Origin: a virus
IMG/VR virus record: IMGVR_UViG_3300022753_000060
Length of the DNA: 64,000 nucleotides
Strand: one strand, 5' to 3'
Part shown: one piece after another, positions 2,458 to 54,963 of the stretch
How positions within the stretch are numbered: position 1 is the first letter of the stretch
Layout of the letters: each line of letters begins with the position of its first letter
The notes under the pieces: generated by a model
What the model saw: only the letters and a program-made list of their open reading frames with translations
Database searches by the model: none
Told to the model about the DNA's origin: nothing
Position numbers and translations under genes: made by a program

Positions 2458-2741
2458 TGTTAGAATTTATTTTAAAGAAAGATAAAAAACATAATTCACT
2501 TTGCCAGATTAAAAAAGATGATATTGTTATTTATCTAACAGAAAAAGAATTAGAAATTCTCATAGAAGATATTTATGAAAAAAGACGAGATGCTTTTGAC
2601 AATATTCCTGTATTAACTATAATGAAACAAGAAATAGATGATTTGAAAAGTACAGTTAATAATTTATATGAAGAAATGGCTGAAATGCAGTCAGATATGG
2701 ATGATTTAGAAGATGAATTGAATGAATACAGGGAGGATTAA
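2457..2741 (+). CDS. hypothetical acidic protein
   Basis: 94-aa ORF, stop/start overlap. Confidence 0.45.
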   Translation: MLEFILKKDKKHNSLCQIKKDDIVIYLTEKELEILIEDIYEKRRDAFDNIPVLTIMKQEIDDLKSTVNNLYEEMAEMQSDMDDLEDELNEYRED

Positions 2742-3106
2742 TGAAACAGACTATTAGAATAGGTACATTTGAAACTAACTCAAGTTCAACTCATTCTTTA
2801 ATACTAGTTAATGTTGATGAATTTGAAAAATTTAAAAATAAAGAATTATATTTTTATATATGGGGTGATAAATTTTTAAAGAAAGAAGAAATTGCAGAAC
2901 TTGAGGATTTTAAAAGTGAATACCCAGATTATAAAGAGTTAGATGACTCTGAAAAAGAAACCGCTATCAATGATTTTATTTGTGATTTTTCAGAATGTGA
3001 TTATCCAGTTTTAGGAACATATCATAGCATGGATATATGTACTCGAGGAGTATATGATAAAGATGGCAATAAACAAATAGCATTTAGTTATTATATATCA
3101 GGTTAA
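2741..3106 (+). CDS. MKQxIR-TFETNSSSxHS family protein (paralog 1 of 6)
   Basis: N-terminus MKQTIRIGTFETNSSSTHSLIL shared with 5 other ORFs in window; divergent C-terminus. Confidence 0.6.
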   Translation: MKQTIRIGTFETNSSSTHSLILVNVDEFEKFKNKELYFYIWGDKFLKKEEIAELEDFKSEYPDYKELDDSEKETAINDFICDFSECDYPVLGTYHSMDICTRGVYDKDGNKQIAFSYYISG

Positions 3107-3120
3107 AGGAGAATAAAAAA

Positions 3121-3525
3121 ATGAAACAAACAATTAGACAAAATACTTTTGAAACGAATAGTAGTTCTGTACATAATATGGTAGTTATTCCTGAAAGTAA
3201 AATGGAAGCGTGGGAGAATAACGAACTATATTATGCTAGATATGTATGGGGAAAAGAAGTAAAAGAATTTGTTAAGAAAAATAATGGTAGATTATTGTAT
3301 ACCAAACAAGAACTTATAGATTCTGGAATGTTTGATGATATGCCAAAAAGGGAAGATTTTGAAGATGAATATGAGTTCGAAGATGCAATAGAAGAATATT
3401 TTGATGATAGTGATTTTGTAACTGCTGATAAATGGTCAAGAGAATTGGAAGAAGATGAGCATATTTATATAACAGAATCTGGTGAAAAATTACATATAAT
3501 TTGTCAATATGGTTATGAAGGATAG
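3121..3525 (+). CDS. MKQxIR-TFETNSSSxHS family protein (paralog 2)
   Basis: N-terminus MKQTIRQNTFETNSSSVHNMVV; RBS aaggaga upstream. Confidence 0.6.
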   Translation: MKQTIRQNTFETNSSSVHNMVVIPESKMEAWENNELYYARYVWGKEVKEFVKKNNGRLLYTKQELIDSGMFDDMPKREDFEDEYEFEDAIEEYFDDSDFVTADKWSRELEEDEHIYITESGEKLHIICQYGYEG

Positions 3526-4315
3526 TATTTTAGTTCAATTAAACACTTCTTTTAATGATTATTGTTTTTATGAAAAAGAACATTATTACACTTATAAAGA
3601 TAAAAGAGTAAAGTGCAGTGTAACACAGTTTGTAAGTCAAAAACATATAGAATTCGATAAAGAAAATATGAGTGCTTACGTTGCAAAGAGAGATAAAGTT
3701 TCTCAAGAAGAAGTTCTTAAAAAATGGGATATTGCTGCTAAGTTATCTTGTGATGTAGGTACTTTATTTCATTTAAGAAGTGAGCAGCTTGCTAATAATA
3801 AAGTATTTGATATTGATTATAGTTCTTATGCAAATTTAGAACATATTTCAGATATAAAAGGAAGACTTGAAAAACTAATACCTTTACAAGATAAATTCTT
3901 CTTAGATATTCATAATAAACTGATACCTATAAAAACAGAGTTTACTGTAGGATATGAAGATATAATAGCTGGTAATATAGATTTATTAGCTTGGAATGTT
4001 AAAGATCAAGAATTTCAGATATGGGATTATAAAACTAATAAAGATATAAAAACGAGTAATAAATATCAGAAATTATTAGATGAGTTTGATTTTCTAGATG
4101 ACTGTGAGTTAAATAAATATTCAATACAACTTGGTATTTATAAAGAACTTTTACAAAGAAAATTAGGTATAAAGATTGGTAAATGTTATTTAGCTTGGTT
4201 TAATGAGAATAACGATGATTACAAGATATTTAAATGTCTAGACTTAGAACAATCTATTAAACAATGCTTAGATAACTTAATAAGGAAAGAGATAGATGGA
4301 AATAACTCCAATTAA
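3509..4315 (+). CDS. PD-(D/E)xK nuclease (RecB/Cas4-like)
   Basis: Motifs GNIDLLAW...EFQIWDYKTNK (hhhD ... E ... hDYKT) typical of RecB-family nuclease core. Confidence 0.5.
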   Translation: MVMKDSILVQLNTSFNDYCFYEKEHYYTYKDKRVKCSVTQFVSQKHIEFDKENMSAYVAKRDKVSQEEVLKKWDIAAKLSCDVGTLFHLRSEQLANNKVFDIDYSSYANLEHISDIKGRLEKLIPLQDKFFLDIHNKLIPIKTEFTVGYEDIIAGNIDLLAWNVKDQEFQIWDYKTNKDIKTSNKYQKLLDEFDFLDDCELNKYSIQLGIYKELLQRKLGIKIGKCYLAWFNENNDDYKIFKCLDLEQSIKQCLDNLIRKEIDGNNSN

Positions 4316-5105
4316 AACAAAGTTAGACAATGTAGGGAATAATATTAAAATATACACTCTAAGTGATATGCATATAGGTGATGCAAATGCTGATCTACCT
4401 ACATTAAGAATGATTATTGATTTTATTAAAAATACCCCAGAATGTTATTGTATTTTATTAGGTGATATACTAAATACTGCTTTAAAAATGTCTAAGTCAG
4501 ATATTTATAGTGAGGCCTTGAGCCTATCTGAAGCGCAAAAATTAGCATTAGAATTATTATTACCTATTAAAGATAAAATACTAGCAATGACACCAGGTAA
4601 TCATGAGAATAGAGTTTGGAAAGAAGTTGGGGTAGATTTATCTTTATGGTTAGCTGAAAAGTTAGGTATTCAAGATAGATATAGAAATAATGGTATAGCA
4701 CTAACAATTCAATTCGGTAAAGATGTAAATGGTAATCCTTTTAGATTAAATATATTTGGTCAACATGGTGCTTATGGTGGCGGTAGAAAATTAGGTGCTG
4801 CTATGAATGCACTTGAAGATTTAGATGGCATTGTTGGCAATGCAGATATCTATATAAGAGCGCATACACATCAACCAATTCAAGGTTCAAGAAATATATT
4901 CTTATTTGATGATAAAGGTAACATAAGTAGAAATACAAAGTATTATTTCAATAGCCCATCAGTAATGAATTATGGTGGATATGCTTACGATAAAGGCTAT
5001 AAACCAACAGATGATACTCCTTGCTATTTGAATATTAGAGCTGTCTCTCAAAGAAAAGGAACTAAAACTTTAAAGAATTTTAAAATAGATAAAGTGAGTT
5101 TGTAG
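4296..5105 (+). CDS. calcineurin-like metallophosphoesterase
   Basis: LSDMHIGD, LLGDIL, PGNHEN, GQHG, AHTHQ metallophosphatase motifs in order. Confidence 0.6.
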   Translation: MEITPIKTKLDNVGNNIKIYTLSDMHIGDANADLPTLRMIIDFIKNTPECYCILLGDILNTALKMSKSDIYSEALSLSEAQKLALELLLPIKDKILAMTPGNHENRVWKEVGVDLSLWLAEKLGIQDRYRNNGIALTIQFGKDVNGNPFRLNIFGQHGAYGGGRKLGAAMNALEDLDGIVGNADIYIRAHTHQPIQGSRNIFLFDDKGNISRNTKYYFNSPSVMNYGGYAYDKGYKPTDDTPCYLNIRAVSQRKGTKTLKNFKIDKVSL

Positions 5106-5106
5106 T

Positions 5107-8806: not shown

Positions 8807-8881
8807 TCCTCGGTAGCTCAGCGGTGGAGCACTCGGCTGTTAACCGATAGGCCGTCCGTTCGAATCGGACCCGGGGAGCCA
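8807..8881 (+). tRNA. tRNA-Asn(GTT)
   Basis: Cloverleaf: acceptor TCCTCGG/CCGGGGA, anticodon loop CTGTTAA, T-loop GTTCGAATC, CCA encoded. Confidence 0.8.
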
Positions 8882-9085
8882 TTAATAAGAAATAAATCCG
8901 ATAATACCAAGTTCTATTAGAAAGGTATTTACTCTAATTAATATGTGAGTTAATTAGATAGAGTAGTTCACAGTGGTTAATAGTTTCTTATTAAGCCAGG
9001 ATAGTTAAACAAGCAAATAATGGGTCTGTCGTGGGAATAACTAAAAACCCAAATGTGTCCTTTTGCGTTAAGGTTAAACGCACAA

Positions 9086-9160
9086 TGCGAATTAACTCAA
9101 TGGTAGAGTGGCTGCTTCATACGCAGTAAGTTATAGGTTCGAGTCCTGTATTCGCAACCA
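9086..9160 (+). tRNA. tRNA-Met(CAT)
   Basis: Acceptor TGCGAAT/ATTCGCA, D ACTC-AATGGTA-GAGT, anticodon stem GCTGC/GCAGT, loop TTCATAC, CCA encoded. Confidence 0.75.
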
Positions 9161-9419
9161 TAACCCTCTAACGACGGTTAGATAAAAATGCAGATGGGTT
9201 CGACATGACTTTGTGAGTTTCAAAGTAAAATCTCCGTTCCTTATGTAGAAAGCGGTAGGGTACATACGTTTTTAGAATTTTGACGAGACAAAAAGGTGCA
9301 CAAAAGTGGGAAGTTTGTATATTTGATGTTACACTATAAAACTGATAATAATAATTGATAAATCGAGTTTATATAATTTGAATAAACCAACCTATCATAT
9401 TATATAAAATATACTTTAT

Positions 9420-9495
9420 CCGAATGTAGGTCAGTTGGTAGACTGCGTGGTTTGGGACCATGAGGTCGGGGGTTCGAGTCCCTCCATTCGGACCA
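9420..9495 (+). tRNA. tRNA-Pro(TGG)
   Basis: Acceptor CCGAATG/CATTCGG, anticodon loop TTTGGGA, T-loop GTTCGAGTC, CCA encoded. Confidence 0.8.
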
Positions 9496-9497
9496 AT

Positions 9498-9573
9498 GCT
9501 TCCATGGCGCAATTGGCAGCGCAACTGACTTGTAATCAGTAGGTTGTCCGTTCGACTCGGACTGGAAGCTCCA
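9498..9573 (+). tRNA. tRNA-Thr(TGT)
   Basis: Acceptor GCTTCCA/TGGAAGC, D GCGC-AATTGGCA-GCGC, anticodon stem ACTGA/TCAGT, loop CTTGTAA, CCA encoded. Confidence 0.8.
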
Positions 9574-9882
9574 TAGGTGCTAATACCTTAGAGAATATAT
9601 TTAAGTGTACATAAAATATATTGATATTAAATTAGAAATTTGTGTATGGGTGCTACGAAGCCAAGGGACACATTACTTCAAGATGTTGCTCCTAAAATCG
9701 TGATTATATAATCAGTAAAAATCTCGAAGGGAAATGGTGCGGAAACAGCAGCTGTAGTTAAATGGAGTTAGATGAACTGCCCAAACACAATTAGACCTGC
9801 CTTGGATGATGGTCTATAAAATAAAAATGTAACGTCCAAGACCGTGGACCCTTAGCTCAGTTGGTTAGAGCTACCGGCTCAT

Positions 9883-10333
9883 CAAGAAGATTAAGAGGTA
9901 TTATATGGAAGAGAGTGCTGTTAAAGGAAATTGCGCTGAGCTTGCTTCAATGCATTATTTACAAAGTTTAGGTTGCGGAATATCAATTCCTTTTGGTTCA
10001 CTTAGATATGATTTTATTATTGATTATAAAAATAAATTATATCGTATCCAATGTAAAAGCGGAAAGTTAAAAAATAATGATGAATACTTGTATGTTCAAT
10101 TAACTTCCGGTAATAACAAAAGAGTAAAATTTTATGATGATTCAGAAATTGATTTCTTCTGTACAGCGATCGCTGGAAAATGTTATCTTTTGCCTAAAGA
10201 GGAAATTAAAACAAGAACATTTACGTTGAGATTAGTTGAACCAAAAAATAAACAAGAGCTCGGAATACATATGGCGCAAGATTACTTAGCTGATAAGATT
10301 CTTTCTTCCTTAAAATAAGCTCAATCGATGATG
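9883..10333 (+). mobile_element. putative group I intron in tRNA anticodon loop carrying homing-endonuclease ORF
   Basis: Insertion between anticodon positions 36/37; 5' splice after U, last intron nt G; contains 137-codon ORF 9905-10318. Confidence 0.5.
9905..10318 (+). CDS. intron-encoded small endonuclease, PD-(D/E)xK-like (I-Ssp6803I-like architecture)
   Basis: 137 aa with candidate active-site pattern E12 ... D36 (YDFIID) ... Q49-C-K51 (RIQCK). Lies within the tRNA(CAT) intron. Confidence 0.4.
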   Translation: MEESAVKGNCAELASMHYLQSLGCGISIPFGSLRYDFIIDYKNKLYRIQCKSGKLKNNDEYLYVQLTSGNNKRVKFYDDSEIDFFCTAIAGKCYLLPKEEIKTRTFTLRLVEPKNKQELGIHMAQDYLADKILSSLK

Positions 10334-10376
10334 AACCGGTTGGTCCGGGGTTCGAGTCCCTGAGGGTCCACCACAT

Positions 10377-10461
10377 GGGATGTTTGTCTAGCGGCAATGA
10401 CCTGAGACTGTAAATCTCATCTCTTCGGAGTTCGGTGGTTCGAGTCCATCACATCCCACCA
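10377..10461 (+). tRNA. tRNA-Tyr(GTA)
   Basis: Acceptor GGGATGT/ACATCCC, anticodon stem TGAGA/TCTCA, loop CTGTAAA, long variable arm, CCA encoded. Confidence 0.75.
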
Positions 10462-10723
10462 TTATATCTAGGTTAAATATTAGACCAGCCCGATATGGAT
10501 ACGGGAAAGTATAGGTGTAAATCCTATGGTATAAATAAGTACTTATCAACTTATAGTCAAAAGATAGGTGGTTTCATTAAGTACCAGAGATATGTCTCGA
10601 ATAAAGAGCTTAATCGATTGCGAATGTATCATATGTTAAGTTGCAGGTAAAGCTTGTAATCCAAAATAGCAAGTCGTATCAGTCTTATATTGTTAGTGAG
10701 GTGACTCCACATAGACATTTATA

Positions 10724-10799
10724 TAGCGGGGTGGAGAAGATGGAATCTCGTCGGACTCATTATCCGAAGGTCACTGGTTCGAGCCCAGTCCCCGCAACC
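10724..10799 (+). tRNA. tRNA(CAT), third CAU species (possible initiator-type, 1:72 mismatch)
   Basis: Acceptor AGCGGGG/CCCCGCA (A1xA72 mismatch), D GAGA-AGATGGAA-TCTC, anticodon stem TCGGA/TCCGA, loop CTCATTA, CCA encoded. Confidence 0.65.
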
Positions 10800-10802
10800 A
10801 TT

Positions 10803-10878
10803 TGTTCTCATAGTATAAGGGATTAGTACAAGGGTCTTCTAAACCTTAAATCTTGGTTCGAATCCAGGTGGGAACACC
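10803..10878 (+). tRNA. tRNA-Arg(TCT)
   Basis: Acceptor GTTCTCA/TGGGAAC, anticodon stem AGGGT/ACCTT, loop CTTCTAA, CCA encoded. Confidence 0.75.
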
Positions 10879-10881
10879 ATA

Positions 10882-10955
10882 TAGGCTTTTAGTTTAAAGG
10901 TAGAACAACAGACTTTGACTCTGTAGGTGGTAGTTCGATTCTATCAGAGCCTGCC
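10882..10955 (+). tRNA. tRNA-Gln(TTG)
   Basis: Acceptor AGGCTTT/AGAGCCT, anticodon stem ACAGA/TCTGT, loop CTTTGAC, CCA encoded. Confidence 0.75.
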
Positions 10956-11073
10956 ATTTCTTATATCTATTCCTTATTACGCGAGAGTTAGTCATTAAGG
11001 TGAGAATCAAGTACGATATAAGAATGTAACCATCGGCGGCGTAGTGGTAACTCAATAGGTGGTTACAAATTTT

Positions 11074-11147
11074 AGGCCCTTAGTTTAAAGGTAAAACTAT
11101 GGTCTCCAAAACCATTGTTGGAAGTTCGAGTCTTTCAGGGCCTGCCA
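11074..11147 (+). tRNA. tRNA-Trp(CCA)
   Basis: Acceptor AGGCCCT/AGGGCCT, anticodon stem ATGGT/ACCAT, loop CTCCAAA, CCA encoded. Confidence 0.75.
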
Positions 11148-11150
11148 AAT

Positions 11151-11224
11151 GCGACATTGGTGTAGTGGTAACATTCCTGCCTTCCAAGCAGTTGTCGTCG
11201 GTTCAAATCCGACATGTCGCTCCA
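11151..11224 (+). tRNA. tRNA-Gly(TCC)
   Basis: Acceptor GCGACAT/ATGTCGC, anticodon loop CTTCCAA, T-loop GTTCAAATC, CCA encoded. Confidence 0.7.
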
Positions 11225-11228
11225 ATAT

Positions 11229-11304
11229 AGGAGAGTGGCCAAATGGTTAAGGTTTCTGTCTGATACACAGAAGATTATAGGTTCAAGTCCTATCTCTCCT
11301 ACCA
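11229..11304 (+). tRNA. tRNA-Ile(GAT)
   Basis: Acceptor AGGAGAG/CTCTCCT, anticodon stem TCTGT/ACAGA, loop CTGATAC, CCA encoded. Confidence 0.75.
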
Positions 11305-11307
11305 TAT

Positions 11308-11383
11308 GCCTGGATAGCCTAGTTGGTCAAGGCAGTGGACTGAAAATCCACCCATCTTAGTTCGATTCTAAGTCCAGGCACCA
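11308..11383 (+). tRNA. tRNA-Phe(GAA)
   Basis: Acceptor GCCTGGA/TCCAGGC, D-arm AGCCTAGTTGGTCAAGGC, anticodon stem GTGGA/TCCAC, loop CTGAAAA, CCA encoded. Confidence 0.8.
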
Positions 11384-11386
11384 TGT

Positions 11387-11477
11387 GGTAAGTTGGGTGA
11401 ATGGTTAAACCAGCAGTTTGCTAAACTGCCGTAGGAAGCAATTTCTACTATTAGTTCGAATCTAATACTTACCGCCA
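11387..11477 (+). tRNA. tRNA-Ser(GCT)
   Basis: Acceptor GGTAAGT/ACTTACC, anticodon stem GCAGT/ACTGC, loop TTGCTAA, long variable arm, CCA encoded. Confidence 0.75.
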
Positions 11478-11483
11478 AAATAT

Positions 11484-11559
11484 GGCTCTATCGTCTAATT
11501 GGCTAGGACAGCACGCTTTCAATGTGCAAACAGGAGTTCGAATCTCCTTAGAGCTACCA
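11484..11559 (+). tRNA. tRNA-Glu(TTC)
   Basis: Acceptor GGCTCTA/TAGAGCT, anticodon stem GCACG/TGTGC, loop CTTTCAA, CCA encoded. Confidence 0.7.
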
Positions 11560-11562
11560 CGT

Positions 11563-11651
11563 GGAGAGTTACCAAAGCGGTCGTACTGGGATGGTCTTGA
11601 AAACCATTTGTCTGTAAGGGCACGGGGGTTCGAATCCCTCACTCCCCGCCA
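11563..11651 (+). tRNA. tRNA-Ser(TGA)
   Basis: Acceptor GGAGAGT/ACTCCCC, anticodon stem ATGGT/ACCAT, loop CTTGAAA, long variable arm, T-arm GGGGG-TTCGAAT-CCCTC, CCA encoded. Confidence 0.7.
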
Positions 11652-11859
11652 AGCCTGTTAGGAATGTGCACTTAAAACTAATGTTATGAATCCTAACTTT
11701 AAAAGCAGATGTTTTGGCTGTCTGATTTCAGAGTACAGATAAAACTCTTGTCCTTTCCTTGGGAGATAAAGGAGCTTCTTAATACTTGTCTTGACAGCTA
11801 AAAGATAATATCAATGTTCCTAACGCATTTATTTGAAGGTATATAAAGTTAGGGTATAT

Positions 11860-11936
11860 GGTCCGTTAGTTCAGTTGGTTAGAACGTCTGCCTGTCACGC
11901 AGAAGGTCAGCGGTTGAAGTCCGCTACGGATCGCCA
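11860..11936 (+). tRNA. tRNA-Asp(GTC)
   Basis: Acceptor GGTCCGT/ACGGATC, D GTTC-AGTTGGTTA-GAAC, anticodon stem TCTGC/GCAGA, loop CTGTCAC, CCA encoded. Confidence 0.8.
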
Positions 11937-13389: not shown

Positions 13390-14895
13390 ATGACATTTTT
13401 ACAAGGATTAAAAAATGAATTAAATACCTCAACCACAGAAAATGGTGCAAAAGGGTATGCTGCTACTGGTAAAGCATTATTAGACTTTAACTTTAAAATA
13501 TCTTCATTTAGGGATTCAAGTGAAGAAGAAATTGAGATAGAATTTAAAAAAGCATGGTTTGAAAACAAAGAACTCGCTCTTAAATACCTATTCTATGCTA
13601 GAGATGCAAGAGAAGGTTTAGGAGAAAGAAGACTATTTAGAACATGTGTAACTGAAATTATAGATGAATTAGATGAAAGAGTATTTGATTGGATTGTTGA
13701 ATTTGGTAGATACGATGATTTATTTGTTTTCTTTGGTACTAAACTAGAAAAACAAATGCTTGAATACGTAAAAACCCAATTGAGAAAAGATGCTAAAAAT
13801 CTTGTTAATAAAGAGCCTATATCATTATTAGCTAAATGGATGCCATCAATAAATACATCTTCAAGCGAAACAAAACGAAAAGCAAGGAGAATTAAATCTT
13901 ATTTAGGAATGTCAGAAAAAGATTATAGAAAAATGCTTTCTGATTTAAGAAACCATTTAGATGTGTTAGAAAGAAAATGTTCTTCAAATAAATGGGAAGA
14001 GATAAAATATGAAAATGTACCATCTCAAGCTAACATAAAATATATGGGGGCATTTTTAAGACATGATGAAGATAGAAGAAGAGATTATTTATCTAAACTT
14101 GAAAAAGGTGAGACAAAAATAAATGCTTCAACTCTATTCCCTCATGATATAGTTTGCAAGTATAGAAATTGTAGAAATAAAGATATCACATTAGAAGAAT
14201 TATGGAAATCTTTACCTGATTATGTTCAAGGAGATAGTTCAACTATAGTAGTTAGAGATGGTTCAGGTTCGATGACTTGTAATGTAGGAAAGACTAGCAC
14301 ATCTGCATTAGATGTTGCAACTGCATTATCTATTTATTTTGCAGAAAGATGTAAAGGTGAGTTTAAAGATAAATTTATCACTTTTTCGAATCAACCAAGA
14401 TTAGTTTCTTTTGAAAAATATGATAATTTAAAAGATAAATTAAATGTAGCTTATGCAGAAGCAGAGGTTGCTAATACTAATATTGAAGCTGTATTTGATT
14501 TAATATTAAAAACAGCAGTTAAAAATAATATGTCTCAAGAAGAGATACCAAATATTTTAATTATATCAGATATGGAATTTGATGAATGTGCTACAACAAA
14601 CGCAACAAGAACTAATAGATGGGATCATACTGCTCCAGATGCTAAATTATTTGATGCTATAAGACAAAGATATGAGAATGCAGGTTATAAATTACCTAAA
14701 ATGTCTTTCTGGAATGTTAATTCAAGAACAAAGACAATCCCAGTAATTCAAAATGATTTAGGGGTAGCTTTAGTATCAGGATTTAGTCCAGCAGTCGTAA
14801 ATATGGTTTTATCAAATGAAATAGATCCATATATAGCATTGCTAAAAGAAATAACTAAAGATAGATATGCAGAAATTACATTAAAAACTGTATAA
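13390..14895 (+). CDS. vWA-domain protein (DUF2828/TROVE-like)
   Basis: 501 aa; N-terminal TENGAKGY...ALLDFNFK; MIDAS-like DxSxS motif VRDGSGSMT; C-terminal ILIISDMEFDE. Confidence 0.4.
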   Translation: MTFLQGLKNELNTSTTENGAKGYAATGKALLDFNFKISSFRDSSEEEIEIEFKKAWFENKELALKYLFYARDAREGLGERRLFRTCVTEIIDELDERVFDWIVEFGRYDDLFVFFGTKLEKQMLEYVKTQLRKDAKNLVNKEPISLLAKWMPSINTSSSETKRKARRIKSYLGMSEKDYRKMLSDLRNHLDVLERKCSSNKWEEIKYENVPSQANIKYMGAFLRHDEDRRRDYLSKLEKGETKINASTLFPHDIVCKYRNCRNKDITLEELWKSLPDYVQGDSSTIVVRDGSGSMTCNVGKTSTSALDVATALSIYFAERCKGEFKDKFITFSNQPRLVSFEKYDNLKDKLNVAYAEAEVANTNIEAVFDLILKTAVKNNMSQEEIPNILIISDMEFDECATTNATRTNRWDHTAPDAKLFDAIRQRYENAGYKLPKMSFWNVNSRTKTIPVIQNDLGVALVSGFSPAVVNMVLSNEIDPYIALLKEITKDRYAEITLKTV

Positions 14896-15215
14896 TATAA
14901 TAAGACACATACAGCAATTCTACATAAGGAACTTGAAATTCGTTTTATACTGTGTCTTGTAAAAAATAAGACCTTTACAGCAATTTTAAAAAACTATTCG
15001 TTGGGAGAATATCTTTTTCAGGTCTTGTAAATAATTTCGACAAGGAAAAGTCGCTTTAAAACCATGTTGTCCTATACCAACGGAGTGATAGGGTGTAGCG
15101 TTCCACTAGCAAACGTTTGGTTCTTGATAAGTGAGCCAATGATAAATTAGAGTAATCTTAACAAAAAGAATCTTGACACTTGCGGAAAGACAGCCAAGAA
15201 ACAACTTATCCATGT

Positions 15216-15309
15216 AGGGGTGTACGATAATTGGAAGTCAAGCGGTCTTCAAAACCGTAACAATAGGTCTCCAAAACCTATAGCGCGGGTTCGATTCCTG
15301 CAACCCCTG
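15216..15309 (+). tRNA. candidate opal-suppressor tRNA(UCA), Trp-derived/Sec-like, with an extra CCA-loop hairpin; no CCA encoded
   Basis: Acceptor AGGGGTG/AACCCCT (6/7 bp), D-arm GATAATTGGAAGTC, anticodon arm GCGGT-CTTCAAA-ACCGT (anticodon TCA), extra hairpin TAGGT-CTCCAAA-ACCTA, T-arm GCGGG-TTCGATT-CCTGC. Sits in 550-nt ORF-free island. Confidence 0.5.
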
Positions 15310-15448
15310 GCTCAATGAGTAAGTACCTTCACGCTGGTTGAGCTGTTTTAACCAAACTTACTCATTTTAAGTAACTTAGCTTTGGTAATGGTGCACCTAC
15401 TAAGTTACCAGAGCTATTTAACTTAATATTATTAAAGGAGAAGAAAAG

Positions 15449-35232: not shown

Positions 35233-35235
35233 TAT

Positions 35236-35796: not shown

Positions 35797-35797
35797 T

Positions 35798-36148: not shown

Positions 36149-36149
36149 T

Positions 36150-37818: not shown

Positions 37819-37831
37819 AAGGAGAGAACAA

Positions 37832-39014: not shown

Positions 39015-39015
39015 T

Positions 39016-39225
39016 ATGAAACAGTTTATTAGAAATAAGACTTTTGAAACAAACTCAAGTTCTACTCATAGTTTAACTTTGGATAACCATAATAAAATAA
39101 CAGATCTACTATATGAAGCTATAAACAAAATTGAAAGTATAGATAGTATGGATGAAGTATATGCAATTCTTGGATTAATGAAACGAGCAGAACGTTTATT
39201 ACTAGATAATTTAGGAGATTATTAA
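39016..39225 (+). CDS. MKQxIR-TFETNSSSxHS family protein (short paralog 3)
   Basis: MKQFIRNKTFETNSSSTHSLTL; 69 aa. Confidence 0.5.
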   Translation: MKQFIRNKTFETNSSSTHSLTLDNHNKITDLLYEAINKIESIDSMDEVYAILGLMKRAERLLLDNLGDY

Positions 39226-39227
39226 AT

Positions 39228-40100
39228 ATGAAACAACTTATTAGAAATTCAACCTTTGAAACAAATAGCAGTTCAATGCATAGTTTAGTTATATCTAAGA
39301 AAGTTAAACCTTACTCAGTTAGTGATAAATCATTGCACTATTATGGCAATGATTTTGAACTATTTGGATGTTGTGATACTCATTCTTTTGGAAGAACACC
39401 TTTTGAAGTTTTATCTAGTCCAAAAGATAAACTAAGATATTATGTAGCACATTATGTAGGTTTCAAAAAAGAAAAAGAAAGGTTAAAAGAAGTTGAAGAT
39501 CTTGTTTATGAGCTTACAGGATGTTCTAGGGAGAAAATAAAATTATATTGTGAAGAAGAATACCCTTGGAAAAAGAAACCAGAAAAATCTTATGGATATG
39601 CTGGTATAAATGACACAGGCGAAGATGTATTTGATTATATTGAAAAGAATAATATATCTTTGAGAGAATTTATCCTTGACCCTAGGTACACTGTTATTGT
39701 AGATGGTGATGAATACCAAGAGTTTAAAAAATTATTTAAAAAAGGTATTATTGATTTAGATAATATAGATTATATATCTAGTGGTAAGCATTTTTGGATT
39801 GATGATATTAAAACATTTAGTCTATATTACATTAATAGATTTGTAAATGATGATGTTTATAATGAATTTATGGAAGAGATAGATAATTATAATAATGAAT
39901 TTATAAAATGTATTGAAATAGAAGATGAAGAGGATGTTGATATAAATCAATCAGCTATGATAACATTTGCATCAGTATTAGAATGTTTTAAGCATTTAAC
40001 TTATGGCAGAAATATACCAATCAAACTTATTCTTAAAACTCATTCACTAGATGATTTTAAACCAATATTAAAATATATAAGTTTAGAAGTTGATAATTAA
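39228..40100 (+). CDS. MKQxIR-TFETNSSSxHS family protein (paralog 4)
   Basis: MKQLIRNSTFETNSSSMHSLVI; 290 aa; intrinsic terminator (AGTTGATAATTAATTATCAACT + T-run) at 40088-40120. Confidence 0.6.
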   Translation: MKQLIRNSTFETNSSSMHSLVISKKVKPYSVSDKSLHYYGNDFELFGCCDTHSFGRTPFEVLSSPKDKLRYYVAHYVGFKKEKERLKEVEDLVYELTGCSREKIKLYCEEEYPWKKKPEKSYGYAGINDTGEDVFDYIEKNNISLREFILDPRYTVIVDGDEYQEFKKLFKKGIIDLDNIDYISSGKHFWIDDIKTFSLYYINRFVNDDVYNEFMEEIDNYNNEFIKCIEIEDEEDVDINQSAMITFASVLECFKHLTYGRNIPIKLILKTHSLDDFKPILKYISLEVDN

Positions 40101-40340
40101 TTATCAACTTTTTTATTTTTCTGTTAAAATTAGTTTACTTTTTAATCATAATCTTATATAATATTTATAATTAAAAGGAGTAGCTATGGTAGTAGTAAAA
40201 GAATCTTATAATATAAATAATGAATTAGAACTTAATATATGTTCTACTTTTCTGTATATTTTATATAAAGATAAGATAAACAAAGGTTTAGCAAATATCA
40301 CATTTGAAAATAATATTTTATATTACAGGGAGATTGTATA

Positions 40341-41510
40341 ATGAATAAAAAGTTAATATGTGTTACACCTAACAATAATAATAAGTTTTACAATATGACA
40401 GATCTCGGTGACGGTACTTTCGAAGTTGAATATGGAAGAGTTGGAGCTACAAGTGTAAAAACTTCTTACTCTATGTCTCAATGGGATAAAAAATACAATG
40501 AAAAAATAAAGAAAGGGTATGTTGATATAAGTGAATCTTTATCTCAAGACATTAAAAAAGCTTCTTTAAAGATAGATGATAAAGATGTTAAAGATTTAAT
40601 TTCATTTCTTATGAGTTGTGCAAAACAGTCTATCAAATCAAATTATGAAGTATCACTGGACTCAATTTCAGATATTCAAATAAATAAAGTCCAAGAAATA
40701 TTAGACGAGTTGAATGACTTGGATTTAACAAAATTACCTTATAATATTATAAATAACTATCTTCAAAAGGTGTATACAACTATACCAAGAAAAATGTATG
40801 ATACAAGAGCTTTTTTCTTAAAACCTAATTACACTAAACAAGAATTTATAGAATTATTACAAGAAGAACAAAATAAACTCAACACACTTAAATCACAAGT
40901 TAATTTGAATACCCAATCTAATAAAATTGAAGATATAACATTAGAAACACTTGGGTTTGATTGTAGATTAGCAACGCAAGAAGAAAGAGAATTTATAGCT
41001 GCCAATACTGATTTTAGAGTTAATAATCAAAAAATATTTAGAGTTACAAATCATGAAACTGAGAAAGTATTTAATCCAGATAATCTTAAAACAAGACTTT
41101 TATATCATGGAAGTAGAAATGAGAATTATCTAAGCATTATGCAAACAGGGTTAAAAATTAGACCTAAGGGTGTTGTCTTAACAGGTTCGATGTTTGGTAA
41201 TGGTATATATGCAGCTAATAAAGCAAGAAAAAGCATTGGTTATACATCATTAAGAGGTAGTTATTGGGCATCTGGCTCAAGTAATAAAGCTTATCTAACT
41301 ATATTTGAATTTGCTACAGGTCAAGAATGGCGAATTTTAGATAATGAAAGTTATAAATCTTGGATGGGCAGGATTACTGAAGATCAAGTTAAATCACAAA
41401 AATGTAATTCAGTATTTGCTAGAGGTGGTGCTGATTTAAGAAACGATGAATATATTGTATATAATAGTAATCAATGTACTATTAGATATATAATTGAAAT
41501 AAATAATTAA
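40341..41510 (+). CDS. PARP-like ADP-ribosyltransferase with WGR domain
   Basis: N-term DGTFEVEYGRVGATSVKTSY (WGR-like); catalytic LLYHGSRNENYLSIMQTGL...GSMFGNGIYAANKARKSIGY...DEYIVYNSNQCTIRYIIE (PARP H-Y-E signature). Confidence 0.6.
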   Translation: MNKKLICVTPNNNNKFYNMTDLGDGTFEVEYGRVGATSVKTSYSMSQWDKKYNEKIKKGYVDISESLSQDIKKASLKIDDKDVKDLISFLMSCAKQSIKSNYEVSLDSISDIQINKVQEILDELNDLDLTKLPYNIINNYLQKVYTTIPRKMYDTRAFFLKPNYTKQEFIELLQEEQNKLNTLKSQVNLNTQSNKIEDITLETLGFDCRLATQEEREFIAANTDFRVNNQKIFRVTNHETEKVFNPDNLKTRLLYHGSRNENYLSIMQTGLKIRPKGVVLTGSMFGNGIYAANKARKSIGYTSLRGSYWASGSSNKAYLTIFEFATGQEWRILDNESYKSWMGRITEDQVKSQKCNSVFARGGADLRNDEYIVYNSNQCTIRYIIEINN

Positions 41511-41524
41511 GGAGATATGATATT

Positions 41525-41989
41525 ATGTTAATAGTTTTATTTTTAATTTCTGTAGGTATACTTATATCAGGTTTGTTAGTATATAAACTAACAGATTATG
41601 GAGATGAAAATCCATATAGTTATATAGGTATTATTTTAGGCATTCTTTTATCGCTTGGTGCTTTTGTAACACTTATAGTAGGTGGGATAACTATATCAGA
41701 AAGTAGTATTATTGATGATAAAATACAAATGTACACTGAGGAGAATACAAATATCGAAACAACTATCACAGCTACAGTAGAGAAATATCTTGAGCACGAA
41801 TTAAACATATTTGATAGTTTACAAGGTGAAGACATACAAACGCTATTGGTAGTATACCCAGAAATTAATAGCAATGAGCTTGTTAAAGCACAAATAGAAG
41901 TGTTTATAGATAACAATAACAAAATAAAAGAATTAAAAGAACAAAAACTAAATATTCAAGTTTGGAAATTTTGGGTTTATTTTGGATAG
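41525..41989 (+). CDS. membrane protein
   Basis: Two N-terminal TM helices; 154 aa. Confidence 0.45.
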   Translation: MLIVLFLISVGILISGLLVYKLTDYGDENPYSYIGIILGILLSLGAFVTLIVGGITISESSIIDDKIQMYTEENTNIETTITATVEKYLEHELNIFDSLQGEDIQTLLVVYPEINSNELVKAQIEVFIDNNNKIKELKEQKLNIQVWKFWVYFG

Positions 41990-42000
41990 GAGGAGAGAAA

Positions 42001-42639
42001 ATGAGATCTATTTTAATTAGTATTAAACCTGAATGGGTTGAGAAAATATTTACCGGTAAGAAAATTCTTGAAATCAGAAAATCAATCCCAAAATGCAATC
42101 TGCCTTGTAAAGTTTATATTTATTGTACTCAATCTACTAAGTATGCTTTTTATCATATTAAAGATGAAAGATTCATGTTATATAAAGGTACTGGAAAGCA
42201 AGTAAATGGTAATTTGAGTTGCGGTACAAAATTAAATGGTAAAGTAGTTGCAGAATTTACATTGCATGATATTGAAACTATTGATAGAGATTATAATGAT
42301 TGGCTACCAAAAAGAATGTATGATATAATGCCAAGTCAATTAGAGGCATCTTGTTTAACTGAAGAGCAACTAGATAATTATGGTAAAGGTAAAACTTTAT
42401 ACGCATGGTGTATAGATGATTTGAAAATTTATAAACAACCAAAAGCGTTAAATGAATTTAAAAAAGACTTAGATTGTGATGATTATCCTTGCAATAAAAA
42501 TAGTGATTGTAAATATAACTATTATGACACAAGTGAAGGTTGTTGGGCTTGTGGGATCGACTTTGATGGTGCAAATTGTATTTATAAACAAATAAATAAA
42601 GCCCCACAAAGCTGGTGTTATGTAGAGGAGATTAAGTAA
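42001..42639 (+). CDS. ASCH/PUA-like domain protein with Cys-rich C-terminus
   Basis: RBS ataggaggagag before ATG 42001; ILISIKPEWVEKIFTGKKILEIRKS. Confidence 0.4.
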   Translation: MRSILISIKPEWVEKIFTGKKILEIRKSIPKCNLPCKVYIYCTQSTKYAFYHIKDERFMLYKGTGKQVNGNLSCGTKLNGKVVAEFTLHDIETIDRDYNDWLPKRMYDIMPSQLEASCLTEEQLDNYGKGKTLYAWCIDDLKIYKQPKALNEFKKDLDCDDYPCNKNSDCKYNYYDTSEGCWACGIDFDGANCIYKQINKAPQSWCYVEEIK

Positions 42640-42640
42640 C

Positions 42641-43375
42641 ATGTATGATTATGAAGATTATTATAGAGAACCATCAGAGATAGAAGATTTATTTAATGAG
42701 TATTCAGCAAAATTACAAACAATGTTAAAGAATGAGATTGTAAATAATGCTAAGAAATATGATGTAAATAAAGATGAAGTTAAAACTATGATGATGGTTG
42801 CGAATGGACTTAAAGAAGAGTATGAAAAGAAACTTGAAGATTTTGATAATGAAATAAGTAAAGCAGCCCAAGAACAACATAATAAATGGTTAGAGAAATT
42901 ACTCCACACTGATATTAAAGTTGGTGATACTGTTTATAAGATATATTCAAATGGGTATACTTATCTAACTTGTCCTTATTGTGAAAATGGAAAAGTTGCA
43001 GTCACTTTAGGTAATAGAATAGAATCTGTTGATTGTCCTATTTGTAAAAATTATAGACCATCTCTACCTAAATATGAGTATAAAAAAGTTAGAGTAAGAC
43101 AATTAAGTATGACTCTCACTTGTTCAGATAAGAATGAAAAAGCTACTCCTTATGTTGATAATTGGGTAGATACATCTAATTATCCTTTTAATAAATTCCA
43201 ATGTAATTGGTGCATTAGAGATGAGAATTGGGACACTTTAACATCTGATAGAACTGCAAAAACAGAAGAACAGGCAAAACTACTTATTACTCATATTAAA
43301 GAAGAAGCAATAAGTAAATTAGAAGAAAAATATGGTAAAGATAAAGTTCAAGATATGTTAAAGGAGATTGAATAA
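42641..43375 (+). CDS. zinc-finger protein
   Basis: CPYCENGK...CPICKN and CNWC motifs; 244 aa. Confidence 0.45.
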   Translation: MYDYEDYYREPSEIEDLFNEYSAKLQTMLKNEIVNNAKKYDVNKDEVKTMMMVANGLKEEYEKKLEDFDNEISKAAQEQHNKWLEKLLHTDIKVGDTVYKIYSNGYTYLTCPYCENGKVAVTLGNRIESVDCPICKNYRPSLPKYEYKKVRVRQLSMTLTCSDKNEKATPYVDNWVDTSNYPFNKFQCNWCIRDENWDTLTSDRTAKTEEQAKLLITHIKEEAISKLEEKYGKDKVQDMLKEIE

Positions 43376-44693
43376 AATGGTTTTAAAAGTATTTGAAGAA
43401 TTTGTAAATGAAATTAACTCTAGTAATTCTAGATTATATAAAGAAGCTGTGTTAGATAAATATAAAGAAAATGAATATGTAAAACAAATAGTTCATTTTA
43501 TATTCAACCCCTATATTGTCACAGGTATCTCAAAAAAGAAAATAGATAGAATTAAATCTTCATTTATAAGTAAAGAAGATATACCAGAAACTTATGATAT
43601 ATTTGACTTACTTAATTATGTTAAGTTGAATAACACTGGTTCAGATTCAACTTTAATTGAAGTCTTAAAATGTGCTATGTCTAATAAAGATTATTCTGAA
43701 CTTATATTTAAAATAGTTTCTAAAGATATTAAATTGGGTATTCAATCAACAACTATAAATAAAATTTGGGGTGATAATTTTATACCTTGCTTCGACGTGA
43801 TGTTAGCACAAAAATATTTTGACAATCCAGATAAACTTGTTCCAGAAGGGATTCAATTTATTTTGACTCCAAAGTTAGATGGTGTCAGATGTGTTTTAAT
43901 TAACGATGGTTTTTCAGGTGCAAAATTCTTTTCCAGACAAGGTCAGTTAATAGAGCAATTGATAGAACTTGAAGAAGAAGCAAAACAGTTACCTATGGGT
44001 TATGTATATGATGGTGAACTACTGTTAGATAACAAAGATAATTTAGAGAGTAAAGATTTATATAGGGCAACTGTAAAAGTTACTAGTGCAGATAAAGAAA
44101 AAACTAATCTTATATTCAATGTTTTTGACATGATTCCAATTACAGATTTTCAAAATGGTTATTGTAATGCGCCTGCATCTTTAAGAAAAGAGCAATTATT
44201 AAAACAATTTACTTTTATGAAATTACCTCATATAGTTGACGTTCCTATCTTATATTATGGTGATGATAAACAGGTTATTACTGAACAATTAGATATTATA
44301 ACAGCTGCTGGAGGTGAGGGTGTCATGATTAATATTGCAGATGCCCCTTATGAATGTAAAAGAAGCAAAGGCTTACTTAAAGTTAAGAAAATGCAAACCT
44401 GCGATGTTAAAGTTGTTGGTATGGAAGAAGGTACAGGAAAAAATAAAGGTAAACTTGGAGCATTAAAGATTGAATTTATTGGTCCTGATGGGTTTACTTA
44501 TCAAAATGATGTAGGTTCGGGTTTGACTGATGAGGATAGAGAGTATTATTGGGATAACCCAGATAAAATTTTAAATAAAATAATTGAAATACAATATTTT
44601 GAAATATCAGCCAATCAACAAGGTACTTTTGGATTAAGGTTTCCTGTATTCAAGTGGATAAGAGAAGATAAGACTGATATATCAATGTATTAA
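43368..44693 (+). CDS. ATP-dependent DNA ligase
   Basis: Motif I TPKLDGVRCV, III YVYDGELL, IV EGVMIN, V LLKVKK; 441 aa. Confidence 0.75.
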   Translation: MNKMVLKVFEEFVNEINSSNSRLYKEAVLDKYKENEYVKQIVHFIFNPYIVTGISKKKIDRIKSSFISKEDIPETYDIFDLLNYVKLNNTGSDSTLIEVLKCAMSNKDYSELIFKIVSKDIKLGIQSTTINKIWGDNFIPCFDVMLAQKYFDNPDKLVPEGIQFILTPKLDGVRCVLINDGFSGAKFFSRQGQLIEQLIELEEEAKQLPMGYVYDGELLLDNKDNLESKDLYRATVKVTSADKEKTNLIFNVFDMIPITDFQNGYCNAPASLRKEQLLKQFTFMKLPHIVDVPILYYGDDKQVITEQLDIITAAGGEGVMINIADAPYECKRSKGLLKVKKMQTCDVKVVGMEEGTGKNKGKLGALKIEFIGPDGFTYQNDVGSGLTDEDREYYWDNPDKILNKIIEIQYFEISANQQGTFGLRFPVFKWIREDKTDISMY

Positions 44694-45621: not shown

Positions 45622-46215
45622 ATGAAACAAACTATAAGATTAGAAACATTTGAGACTAATAGTTCAAGTTATCATAGCTTAGCCATTATTAAACAAAGTA
45701 AAGAAACTAAAAATGCAAGAGAAATAATTCCAGGACAAGATTTAGAGATAACAAGTAAAGTTTCTAGAAGGACAATGGGGTGGACAAGCTCATATCAATT
45801 TACCGCAAGAAGTACTTTTGATAAAGCACAAACCTTGTTAAGATTTATTGCATCAGAAGTAGATGATCAATGTGATGAAATAGTAAAAGAATCAGAGTAT
45901 ACTAACTATGACGAGCCTAAATATTTAGAAGATTATTATGATAGTAAAGGTTGTCATCACATAAAAACAAATCCAAAAAGATGTGATTATGAACTTAGAA
46001 GAAAACTTATGGATGAAAGATTTTATGAAGTACCTTTAATCAAAGCATTTGTGAATGCAATAAAGAAATATATCGGTGAAGATAAACAAGTAATTATTCC
46101 AGAAAAAAGAGATTTAGAGCATCTGTATGATGAAGGTAAAGGATTAGATGATTTATTAATGATTCCAAGCTACGAACTTAAAAATGTAGAATTACTCACA
46201 AAGAAATTTTATTAA
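45622..46215 (+). CDS. MKQxIR-TFETNSSSxHS family protein (paralog 5)
   Basis: MKQTIRLETFETNSSSYHSLAI; 197 aa. Confidence 0.6.
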   Translation: MKQTIRLETFETNSSSYHSLAIIKQSKETKNAREIIPGQDLEITSKVSRRTMGWTSSYQFTARSTFDKAQTLLRFIASEVDDQCDEIVKESEYTNYDEPKYLEDYYDSKGCHHIKTNPKRCDYELRRKLMDERFYEVPLIKAFVNAIKKYIGEDKQVIIPEKRDLEHLYDEGKGLDDLLMIPSYELKNVELLTKKFY

Positions 46216-46399
46216 ATAATATTTGACCCAGATTATATACTGCAAGAAGATTGTGAAAGTAATGAATAATAAAATTTAAAGTAAACTAGTTAAAATTAGT
46301 TTACTTTTTCTTTTTATTGATATATAATATTAATGTATATATAAATAAAGGAGAAAAAACTATGTTAGATGCAGCATACATAAAAATAAACATTATACA

Positions 46400-53368: not shown

Positions 53369-54036
53369 TGACAGATTTGGAAATGAAGAAATTAGCAGAA
53401 TGTACAAGAGAAGAATTAATTGATATAATTATCAGTATGGATAAACAATTAGAATCAAATAATTCTTTAAAAGAAAGTATTGCAAGAGGAATTAAAGAAG
53501 GTTTAACACCACCTAATACTTTAGATATAAAAGATGGGCAAATTTATGTGAAAAGCAATAATGATTGGTCTTTCCAAGATTGTAGTTATGCAGTCACTTC
53601 TCAATTAGATGAATTTAAAAGACTTGCAAAAGAAGCTCAAGAAATAAATAAAGAAATAGATTTTGTTATTAAAGATAAATTTTTAAATTATAAATTTATT
53701 AGCGGTAAAGATGATAGATTTAAAATAGGTAAGTTAGAAGTCTTAGACCCATTTAATGTAACTGACACAGAAATTAATGCACGAAAAGAAACATTAAAAA
53801 ATTTAAAGTTATTAATGTCTGCTTACAAATTAGGTTTTGATGATTTTGCAAAAAATAACTATTTTATTGCTTATACTCATTTCAAAGAAATAATAAAAGA
53901 ATCTAAATTAAAAGAGAAACATAAAGAAGATATTTTGAATAAAGCTTGGAAAGATTATGCTAATTATTGGGATCTTTATAATACGCCTATATATGTAAAT
54001 ATTGATACCACAAAAGAGGGTTCTGTGAATGAATAA
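53368..54036 (+). CDS. hypothetical protein
   Basis: 222-aa ORF. Confidence 0.45.
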   Translation: MTDLEMKKLAECTREELIDIIISMDKQLESNNSLKESIARGIKEGLTPPNTLDIKDGQIYVKSNNDWSFQDCSYAVTSQLDEFKRLAKEAQEINKEIDFVIKDKFLNYKFISGKDDRFKIGKLEVLDPFNVTDTEINARKETLKNLKLLMSAYKLGFDDFAKNNYFIAYTHFKEIIKESKLKEKHKEDILNKAWKDYANYWDLYNTPIYVNIDTTKEGSVNE

Positions 54037-54241
54037 AGACCAAGAATTGCTAATGAAGATAATGTTTGATAAACAACTTTCAAAAAGAGATGATAAAACT
54101 ATTTTAGAAAGCATTAAAACTGAGATAAAATCAGAAGAATTAAAATTAGAAGATACTTCGTACAATTCTGCTTTTTCAGCTGGTTGGATACTCGGTTCTA
54201 TCCATACATATCATAAAGTAGAAGAAATATTGGATAAATGA
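54029..54241 (+). CDS. hypothetical small protein (ends at TGA; 3 more sense codons if read through)
   Basis: 70-aa ORF. Confidence 0.35.
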   Translation: MNKDQELLMKIMFDKQLSKRDDKTILESIKTEIKSEELKLEDTSYNSAFSAGWILGSIHTYHKVEEILDK

Positions 54242-54408
54242 TTGAAAGGTTTATAAAAAGATATAAAATTTTTAAAAAGGAATTAATTATGATAGAAGGG
54301 TTACTAATTCTTATAGCGACATTATTATTTTTTTTAGTTGCGATTATTTTAGTAAAATATTAACTAAGGAATTAATATTATTAAAAATAACAAGGAGAAA
54401 TTAATAAA

Positions 54409-54963
54409 ATGAATCAAAAAATTAGAAATAATACATTCGAAACAAATAGTTCATCTATTCATAGCTTAGCAATTTGCAAAACGGATAAAACAGATACCCA
54501 GTTTGAATTATTAGCTTCAGAATATGAAGTAAATATTCCATTGGAAAATTTTGATTATGATATGATACTAGATGAGCCTTATGATATATTATCATATTTA
54601 TATAGTTACTCGGTAGTATCTAAATATTGGAAGCTATATGATCTAATTATCAAAACTTTTCCAAATTGCATTTTTGAAAAACCTAGATATGATTTGCCTT
54701 GGAATAGTAAAAAAGGTTATTGTAATGATAGATCTATAATAAGTTTTTGTGATGTTATAAATTGTCATATGGCACCATTATTAGAAAAAAATGCGCAAGA
54801 ATATATTTTAGATCATCTTGCAAAAGTTGTTTTTTCAAGTAAAATATGTATAATGAGAGATCTAAATTTTGGTAATTATATAGATGAAAGAGATGATATA
54901 ATTGACAAAGAAAAATATAAAAAAGAAAATTTTGAAATAATATTTGATGAAGAAGAATTTTAA
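54409..54963 (+). CDS. MKQxIR-TFETNSSSxHS family protein (paralog 6)
   Basis: MNQKIRNNTFETNSSSIHSLAI; 184 aa. Confidence 0.6.
   Translation: MNQKIRNNTFETNSSSIHSLAICKTDKTDTQFELLASEYEVNIPLENFDYDMILDEPYDILSYLYSYSVVSKYWKLYDLIIKTFPNCIFEKPRYDLPWNSKKGYCNDRSIISFCDVINCHMAPLLEKNAQEYILDHLAKVVFSSKICIMRDLNFGNYIDERDDIIDKEKYKKENFEIIFDEEEF

Follow-up and report, generated by a model that had tools for sequence, protein, structure and literature searches.

Six open reading frames (ORFs) of an uncultured phage begin with nearly the same 20 residues. They lie in a 64,000-nucleotide stretch of DNA, IMG/VR virus record IMGVR_UViG_3300022753_000060, which is called the window throughout. On balance we favor the view that this shared N-terminus, the tag, is an element recognized by a dedicated radical S-adenosylmethionine (SAM) enzyme and probably modified by it, so that one enzyme would have many clients. 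Three observations carry the argument. The tag is portable, obligatorily N-terminal and of fixed length, and it sits on non-homologous bodies. Tag and enzyme are genomically coupled in both directions, with a single dedicated enzyme as the partner, and this is the decisive result. Within a genome, the tags of paralogs that are not homologous to one another show concerted evolution. The features of the window that matter here are listed below.

o2741, 2741-3106, + strand: 121 aa, type 2 subfamily; tag residues 1-20 are nucleotides 2741-2800, and the body ends ..IAFSYYISG
o3121, 3121-3525, + strand: 134 aa, another type 2 protein, following o2741 in tandem; highly acidic, with an isoelectric point (pI) of 4.4
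o39016, 39016-39225, + strand: 69 aa, the tag plus a short body
o39228, 39228-40100, + strand: 290 aa, type 1 subfamily, with an added extension at the C-terminus
o45622, 45622-46215, + strand: 197 aa, a rarer subfamily whose orthologues end ..IIFNxxxEIxEECESNE
o54409, 54409-54963, + strand: 184 aa, starting MNQKIR..; its relatives are P0150, P0157 and P0175
ORF 55045-55254, + strand: 69 aa, between o54409 and the radical-SAM gene and abutting the latter; its membership in the module is uncertain
Radical-SAM enzyme, 55256-56284, + strand: 342 aa, with CNMGCKFC (CxxxCxxC) and a SAM-motif region; phrog_16999

The initial annotation had described six ORFs of 69-290 aa with a common 20-aa N-terminus, and all six were confirmed on the + strand at the coordinates in this list. 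Every one starts M(K/N)QxIRxxTFETNSSSxH(S/N). In their alignment 13 of the first 18 positions are invariant (M1, Q3, I5, R6, T9, F10, E11, T12, N13, S14, S15, S16 and H18). An 11-residue string that occurs six times within 64 kb is not chance. A six-frame scan of the window yields these six copies and nothing more. Across the copies the Ser triplet is encoded as TCA-AGT-TCA, AGT-AGT-TCT, TCA-AGT-TCT, AGC-AGT-TCA, AGT-TCA-AGT and AGT-TCA-TCT. Both serine codon families are used and the combinations vary, which means that selection acts on the peptide, as had been claimed. A GGAG-like ribosome-binding site precedes each of the six ATGs, so the N-termini are correctly placed. All six proteins are acidic (pI 4.4-5.9), and the set in this phage is expanded and dispersed. 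The member nearest to the radical-SAM gene is o54409, 292 bp upstream on the same strand. No terminator-like site lies between the two, although the promoter and terminator scan was otherwise uninformative in this AT-rich DNA. The small ORF between them has no tag, no match to the tagged family and no PHROG match. Proteins of ~70 aa like o39016 are found elsewhere (P0156, P0158 and P0197; contig L001, 15905-16126).

The tag defines a large family, with the general form M-(K/R)-x-x-(I/V)-R-x-x-h-F-E-(T/S)-N-S-S-S-x-H-(S/A). A 32-aa tag profile matches 3,946 representative proteins of 30-400 aa at E<=1e-3 (50% identity clusters), and the motif is nearly always at residue 1 in these matches. Of 282 tag-bearing proteins that were compared, 279 have the Phe at residue 9 or 10. 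The spacing from Met to Thr is 10-11 in 160 of the 169 ORFs that were collected around the enzyme, as described below. The anatomy of the family was examined in 386 members from 165 loci. Type 1 has 181 members with a median of 182 aa and a frequent end ..YKGN, and it includes o39228 and gp130 of Microcystis phage Ma-LMM01. Its further conserved residues are G43, Y58, D106-H107 and D141 (gp130 numbering). Among o39228 and its relatives (321 homologues) P58, K68, Y71 and D159-G-D-E162 are invariant besides the tag, and o39228 has VDGDEY. Type 2 has 133 members in 118 loci with a median of 127 aa and a typical end YGYDG, and it includes o2741 and o3121. Almost nothing is conserved in type 2 beyond the tag; there is no other conserved polar residue and only G121 is near-invariant. 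The o45622 subfamily is smaller, with 28 orthologues.

The C-termini had been called unrelated in the initial annotation, and this holds among the o39228, o2741/o3121 and o45622 subfamilies. The hhalign alignments of the o39228, o3121 and o45622 subfamilies span only residues 1-26, 1-36 and 1-30. Similarity ends at residues 26-36, and the picture of a conserved leader on variable bodies stands. It does not hold within the o2741/o3121 pair, which is homologous over its full length and forms one subfamily, and the only connection of o54409 to the o39228 group is a series of weak intermediate matches. Whole-protein homologues of the o39228 and o45622 bodies have the tag in 118 of 120 and 28 of 28 cases, respectively. 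The two tagless homologues look like N-terminally truncated fragments.

It had been proposed that structure prediction could separate a structural core from a flexible leader. In two independent AlphaFold models residues 1-14/15 form a low-confidence coil with a predicted local distance difference test (pLDDT) score of 39-73, compared with 87-91 for the remainder, and residues 1-15 are packed against neither body. The o39228 model has a pLDDT of 86.8 overall and below 50 for residues 1-14, and its first strand is at residues 17-23. Conservation peaks at TNSSSxHS and extends into the first core beta-strand (residues 16-24). Residue 17 is subfamily-specific (M, T/V, Y or I), which suggests that residues 16-24 are packed into each body. 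The other suggestion made at the start, that the motif is a catalytic or beta-strand element common to a single domain, is only half right. The part that fails is the single domain, since the bodies are not one.

Tag and enzyme can each be used to find the other. The tag-seeded scan looked for FETNSSS[TVM]H in one genome per prokaryotic species and gave 79 loci, mostly phage-like contigs of 100-175 kb from gut and rumen bins. Some loci come from isolates, namely Thomasclavelia cocleata, Eubacterium plexicaudatum ASF492, Lachnospiraceae MD308 and Acetivibrio ethanolgignens. In isolates the module is also found within prophage-like regions beside antirepressor and methylase genes. Tagged genes form tandem arrays of one to eight on the same strand. 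All neighboring ORFs were clustered over 81 tag-seeded loci. A protein of ~300 aa with CxxxCxxC is present in 67 of the 81, where the median gap to the closest tagged gene is 15.5 bp, and the window ORF at 55256-56284 belongs to this cluster. The enzyme is always co-directional with the tagged genes and is directly downstream of them in 47 of the loci. No other neighbor cluster is comparably frequent, the lesser ones being only partly annotated. There is no linked protease, exporter or capsid gene among the conserved neighbors.

The search in the other direction was seeded with the radical-SAM alignment and covered the best 80 of 487 confirmed IMG/VR loci. In 73 of these 80 the enzyme has ORFs with TNSS[ST].H no more than 8 kb away, and all 169 such ORFs are on the enzyme's strand. 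Three more loci have FESNSSS or WETNSSA variants, which raises the count to at least 76 of 80, and two others are cut off upstream. Exactly two tagged members are present in 43 of the 80 loci. The commonest module is one type 1 gene, one type 2 gene and the enzyme.

Concerted evolution was examined in 82 dereplicated loci with both types, using the eight variable residues of the leader. Type 1 and type 2 leaders are 62-65% identical within a locus versus 47% between loci, and they are of equal length in 89% of within-locus pairs versus 48% between loci. In a permutation test the observed value was reached in 0 of 5,000 label shuffles. One locus (L085) has the rare FES variant in both paralogs. 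Variation in the tag follows the phage genome, not the host group. Such a pattern is expected if all tags of a genome share one reader that is specific to that genome.

The enzyme is itself poorly described. The window ORF matches phrog_16999, 'Fe-S oxidoreductase', at E 7e-35, and the matches for the enzyme are 1e-35 to 1e-48. The window enzyme also has a weak match to Pfam Radical_SAM, while similarity of the enzyme to curated radical-SAM families in Pfam and NCBIfam is only generic and sub-threshold. C82, C86 and C89 are invariant in the enzyme alignment (A7). There are at least 1,705 homologue clusters, and all are named hypothetical. In the PDB the closest match by sequence is SuiB, a peptide maturase, at E 1e-6 and over the core region alone. 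Matches to SPASM maturases are likewise in the core only and far under the cut-offs. A Paludibacter-binned contig (L004, 3629-5704) has a radical-SAM gene of 691 codons with an intein-like insert in the ELA-GGGNPL motif. The element starts with CLKGDS, contains LFDGDGCY, a LAGLIDADG-type motif, and ends with ..THN followed by Cys. Inteins are typically found in functionally critical sites.

The association reaches distant phages. Lak-A1, a Lak megaphage, has the enzyme and then five tagged genes. Rhodothermus phage RM378 has the enzyme p108, then p107, then p106, which starts MKAFIRFGLSTNSSSSHS and has Ser in place of the tag Glu. Ma-LMM01 has a single tagged member, in the order gp130 (MLSIQVRQGVFETNSSSTHS..), gp129, gp128, the last being the enzyme. 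Both gp130 and p106 bear the tag and were found only via the enzyme. The tag is conserved across phages of Bacteroidota, Cyanobacteria, Rhodothermus and Firmicutes-type hosts. By RNA-seq gp130, gp129 and gp128 of Ma-LMM01 are all class B5 middle genes, although most genes of this phage are middle class, as gp130 is (PMC5780444). A middle promoter is predicted before gp130 only and none before gp129 or gp128, and the late class holds the head and sheath genes (PMC5780444). The shared class and the single promoter are consistent with one gp130-gp129-gp128 operon.

Searches for a known relative of the tagged proteins were made with several methods. Pfam, NCBIfam and PADLOC have no match for the six tagged proteins and no family model, and PHROGs gave only weak matches to phrog_28997, a family without an assigned function. 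A PDB sequence search with three profiles of tagged proteins gave no match. A BFVD fold search with a tagged-protein model gave nothing useful, and the o39228 model has no convincing fold match. It had been considered that homologues could place the N-terminus in a known enzyme fold, and none was matched in the profile and PDB searches. Megablast and tblastn searches of INPHARED with the window and o39228 gave no match. A tblastn search of 50,697 deposited phage genomes with o3121 found Lak megaphages only, and a plasmid search for tagged proteins gave no match. Literature searches on the motif string, on Lak phage with radical SAM and on phage radical-SAM client systems found nothing relevant, and no virion proteome that includes gp130 of Ma-LMM01 came to light. 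No published description was found of the tagged family, of the function of this radical-SAM subfamily or of their association.

We propose the following scenario. The flexible N-terminal tail of each tagged protein would be the element that the enzyme reads, and the tail would enter the active site. Most probably a post-translational modification would be made there at one invariant position of T-N-S-S-S-x-H. A single enzyme would mature many client proteins, as a maturase of ribosomally synthesized and post-translationally modified peptides (RiPPs) or anSME does. From the sequences we infer that the enzyme physically recognizes the tag; that it modifies the tag covalently, and in what way, is our guess. 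Candidate chemistries would be oxidation of a Ser to an aldehyde, epimerization or an intra-tag crosslink within T-N-S-S-S-x-H. This would be the logic of RiPPs applied to whole folded proteins, with ~4,000 client clusters. The tagged genes sit amid RNA-repair, nucleotide-metabolism, poly(ADP-ribose) polymerase (PARP) and methylase genes, and this neighborhood suggests that the acidic bodies are accessory proteins for host takeover or counter-defence. We put forward with more hesitation a wider proposal, which could well be wrong. It is that phages of diverse hosts may have a maturation system, so far unrecognized, in which a compact radical-SAM enzyme makes a new kind of modification on a portable 20-residue tag and so arms or activates polymorphic, rapidly expanding effectors of host takeover or counter-defence.

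Other assignments for the motif were tried and rejected. A three-residue cyclophane (F-x-T) does not fit because the Phe is Leu in RM378. SGNH block I would have its catalytic His misplaced. Self-processing at T12 or S14, as in Ntn-hydrolases or pyruvoyl enzymes, conflicts with the non-homologous bodies and the 69-aa member. The PglB-type sequon E-x-N-x-S is a literal match, but these are cytoplasmic phage proteins without a signal peptide.

Several points weigh against recognition and modification by the enzyme. It has neither the SPASM/twitch domains nor the RiPP recognition element (RRE) that radical-SAM enzymes acting on peptides usually have. In A7 there is no conserved Cys past CxxxCxxC, and the RM378 enzyme is even without the N-terminal hairpin. 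The absence of a linked protease or exporter is another such point. Of the six tagged copies in the window, five are separated from the gene of the enzyme by 8-52 kb. Invariant columns have no covariation signal, and this could partly account for the low pLDDT of the tail. Gene conversion could also be a source of the concerted evolution. It must also be noted that E-T-N-S-S-S-x-H resembles an active-site or metal-binding motif to which type 1 adds D-H and D, so the tag itself could be catalytic.

That last point leads to the main rival. One can imagine that the tag is an intrinsic part of each protein, such as a catalytic loop, a metal- or phosphate-binding loop or an oligomerization strand. 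It would remain unmodified, and the enzyme would only be a partner in the same pathway or complex, for example one that makes a small molecule. The invariant E, T, N, S, S, S and H are typical active-site chemistry, and D106-H107 with D141 in type 1 and VDGDEY in o39228 would go with them. A type 1 protein, a type 2 protein and an enzyme module fit a three-subunit machine, and the behavior of residue 17 agrees with a segment that packs into each body. However, the same motif is found on bodies without detectable homology, including a 69-aa protein that is too small for an enzyme, and type 2 has no other conserved polar residue. Residues 1-15 are unpacked in the AlphaFold models and no known fold or family was matched. 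If an external partner reads the tag, one would expect its distance from Met1 to be fixed and its leader to change in concert within each genome, as observed. We consider an intrinsic element rather unlikely for these reasons. The idea with which the initial annotation began does worse. It likened the tag to the capsid-targeting leaders of the T4 internal proteins IPI-III, so that the prohead protease would cut after ..TFE and the bodies would be packaged and ejected as effectors. The likeness is real in some respects: T4 too has a conserved leader of ~10-20 residues on unrelated small proteins scattered in a large myovirus genome, its ip genes lie among accessory genes as the tagged genes do, the tail is flexible in the models, and there is a Glu at position 11. 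In T4, though, the leader ends at the (L/I)xE cut and nothing is conserved beyond it. Here conservation is highest past the Glu and continues into the core strand, and the Glu is Ser in RM378 p106; cleavage at TFE/TN is not supported. T4 internal proteins are basic and the tagged proteins are acidic. Their sole conserved partner is the radical-SAM enzyme, with other clusters less frequent and partly annotated. The module also lies in prophage-like regions of isolates, beside antirepressor and methylase genes. The single member in Ma-LMM01 shares its middle class and predicted promoter with the enzyme and is not in the late class, though most genes of that phage are middle class too. Capsid targeting is therefore very improbable. 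Whatever the mechanism turns out to be, this case corrects the T4-style inference that a conserved leader means capsid targeting.

A signal read by the host is another option. A degron of the Clp or Lon type, a secretion signal or a localization signal could impose a common fate or timing on all paralogs, in which case the link to the radical-SAM gene would be incidental. An obligatory N-terminal position, a fixed length and a flexible tail are what one would expect of it. Yet the tag is constant across hosts as different as Bacteroidota, Cyanobacteria, Rhodothermus and Firmicutes-type bacteria, which differ in their proteolytic and secretion signals, and it is not hydrophobic. It tracks the phage genome, not the host group, and the two-way linkage to a phage enzyme is far too strong to be incidental. 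We give a host-read signal hardly any credence.

In kind the arrangement is like known radical-SAM maturase-client systems. It differs in its folded, N-terminally tagged clients, its minimal enzyme and its phage-wide setting. RiPP families with one maturase (prochlorosins with ProcM; tandem precursor genes with radical-SAM maturases such as SuiB and AlbA) are a parallel to the tandem, co-directional paralogs upstream of a single radical-SAM gene seen here. They also have a conserved recognition segment before a variable remainder, the segments co-vary within a genome, and SuiB is the best PDB match of the enzyme described here. The differences are that the clients here are folded proteins of 70-300 aa and not short peptides, and that recognition part and invariant candidate target both seem to lie at the extreme N-terminus. 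The enzyme here has no SPASM/twitch domain or RRE, there is no linked protease or exporter, and the system is wholly phage-borne. The radical-SAM enzymes anSME and AtsB are encoded beside their clients, the Ser/Cys-type sulfatases. Not far from the N-terminus the client has a short conserved motif, in which the enzyme converts a Ser or Cys, and one such enzyme can serve several paralogous clients. Given the invariant, Ser-rich motif and the extra D-H and D of type 1, an activated active-site residue is conceivable here too. In glycyl-radical systems too, the radical-SAM enzyme (the activase) is small and has one cluster, and its several different clients, encoded nearby, have a conserved and mobile segment at one terminus. 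Their motif, however, is a C-terminal RVxG whose Gly is the radical site, and the tag has no conserved Gly. The hosts here also include the oxygenic or aerobic Microcystis and Rhodothermus, where a stable protein radical is unlikely.

If the enzyme does recognize and modify the tag, a large family without an assigned function would be defined, with ~3,900 tagged clusters and at least 1,700 enzyme clusters in phages of gut, rumen, freshwater and hot springs, Lak megaphages included. One enzyme and one 20-residue substrate motif would be a testable handle, and Ma-LMM01 and RM378, both cultured, hold the minimal module. New radical-SAM chemistry on proteins would be possible, as would a short, genetically encodable tag that a small enzyme can modify. 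Phage effectors could be found by their tag.

The window as a whole is the non-structural part of an uncultured phage of ~154 kb; it holds no structural genes. It has 28% G+C, one coding strand throughout and 17 tRNA genes, and its gene content includes NrdD, a CCA-adding enzyme, RlaP, RNA and DNA ligases and a WGR-PARP protein. Several genes near the tagged ORFs are worth describing. A PD-(D/E)XK nuclease (268 aa) and a calcineurin-like metallophosphoesterase (269 aa) follow o2741/o3121 at 3509-5105 and overlap the end of o3121. They look like a recombination-nuclease pair that is translationally coupled to the tagged genes. Directly downstream of o39228 is a 389-aa protein with WGR and PARP catalytic domains (40341-41510). 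A related phage contig of 142 kb (L001, 10001-10903 and 11747-12916) repeats this order of an o39228 homologue and a PARP gene, and it also codes for an ART-PolyVal protein. A set of RNA-repair and tRNA-maintenance genes lies near the tagged genes at 33142-44693, namely an RlaP nucleotidyltransferase, a CCA-adding enzyme, an RNA ligase and an ATP-dependent DNA ligase. A CCA-adding enzyme and/or RlaP is also found a few kb from the module in E. plexicaudatum (L038, 1040-5290) and RM378 (L083, 1735-2820). The proximity of RNA-repair genes to the module may be more than common ancestry.

One tagged gene appears to be shortened. o45622 stops at an in-frame TAA 18 codons early, where its 93%-identical homologue P0121 has Glu. 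Past this TAA the frame at 46213-46272 reads on as IIFDPDYILQEDCESNE and then meets two stops, and IIFDPDYILQEDCESNE is the C-terminal tail that is conserved in the o45622 subfamily. The TAA is either a recent nonsense mutation that removes 18 residues, a sequencing error or a read-through site. Sixteen of the tRNA genes are clustered at 8807-11936, and a separate 97-nt tRNA with anticodon TCA is at 15215-15311. ARAGORN calls the latter tRNA-SeC, and it may suppress opal (TGA) codons. Among the stops in the window TGA is the least frequent, ending 5 of the 72 ORFs of at least 100 aa, and TGA read-through would join the ORFs at 19285-19524 and 19570-20025. Stop-codon recoding was considered behind the in-frame TAA and the tRNA(TCA) and was set aside, as this region has no strong sign of it. 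The standard code already gives 84% coding, and TGA or TAG read-through adds little.

In NrdD (25015-28110, 1,031 aa) two NRDD matches flank a GIY-YIG nuclease domain that occupies residues 480-555, which looks like a homing-endonuclease-type insertion within the reading frame. Two more accessory genes are unusual for a phage. A 501-aa DUF2828/DUF7788 protein is encoded at 13390-14895 between the tRNA array and the tRNA(TCA), and a 489-aa protein at 57900-59369 has an N-terminal Cu/Zn superoxide-dismutase domain (E 1e-31).

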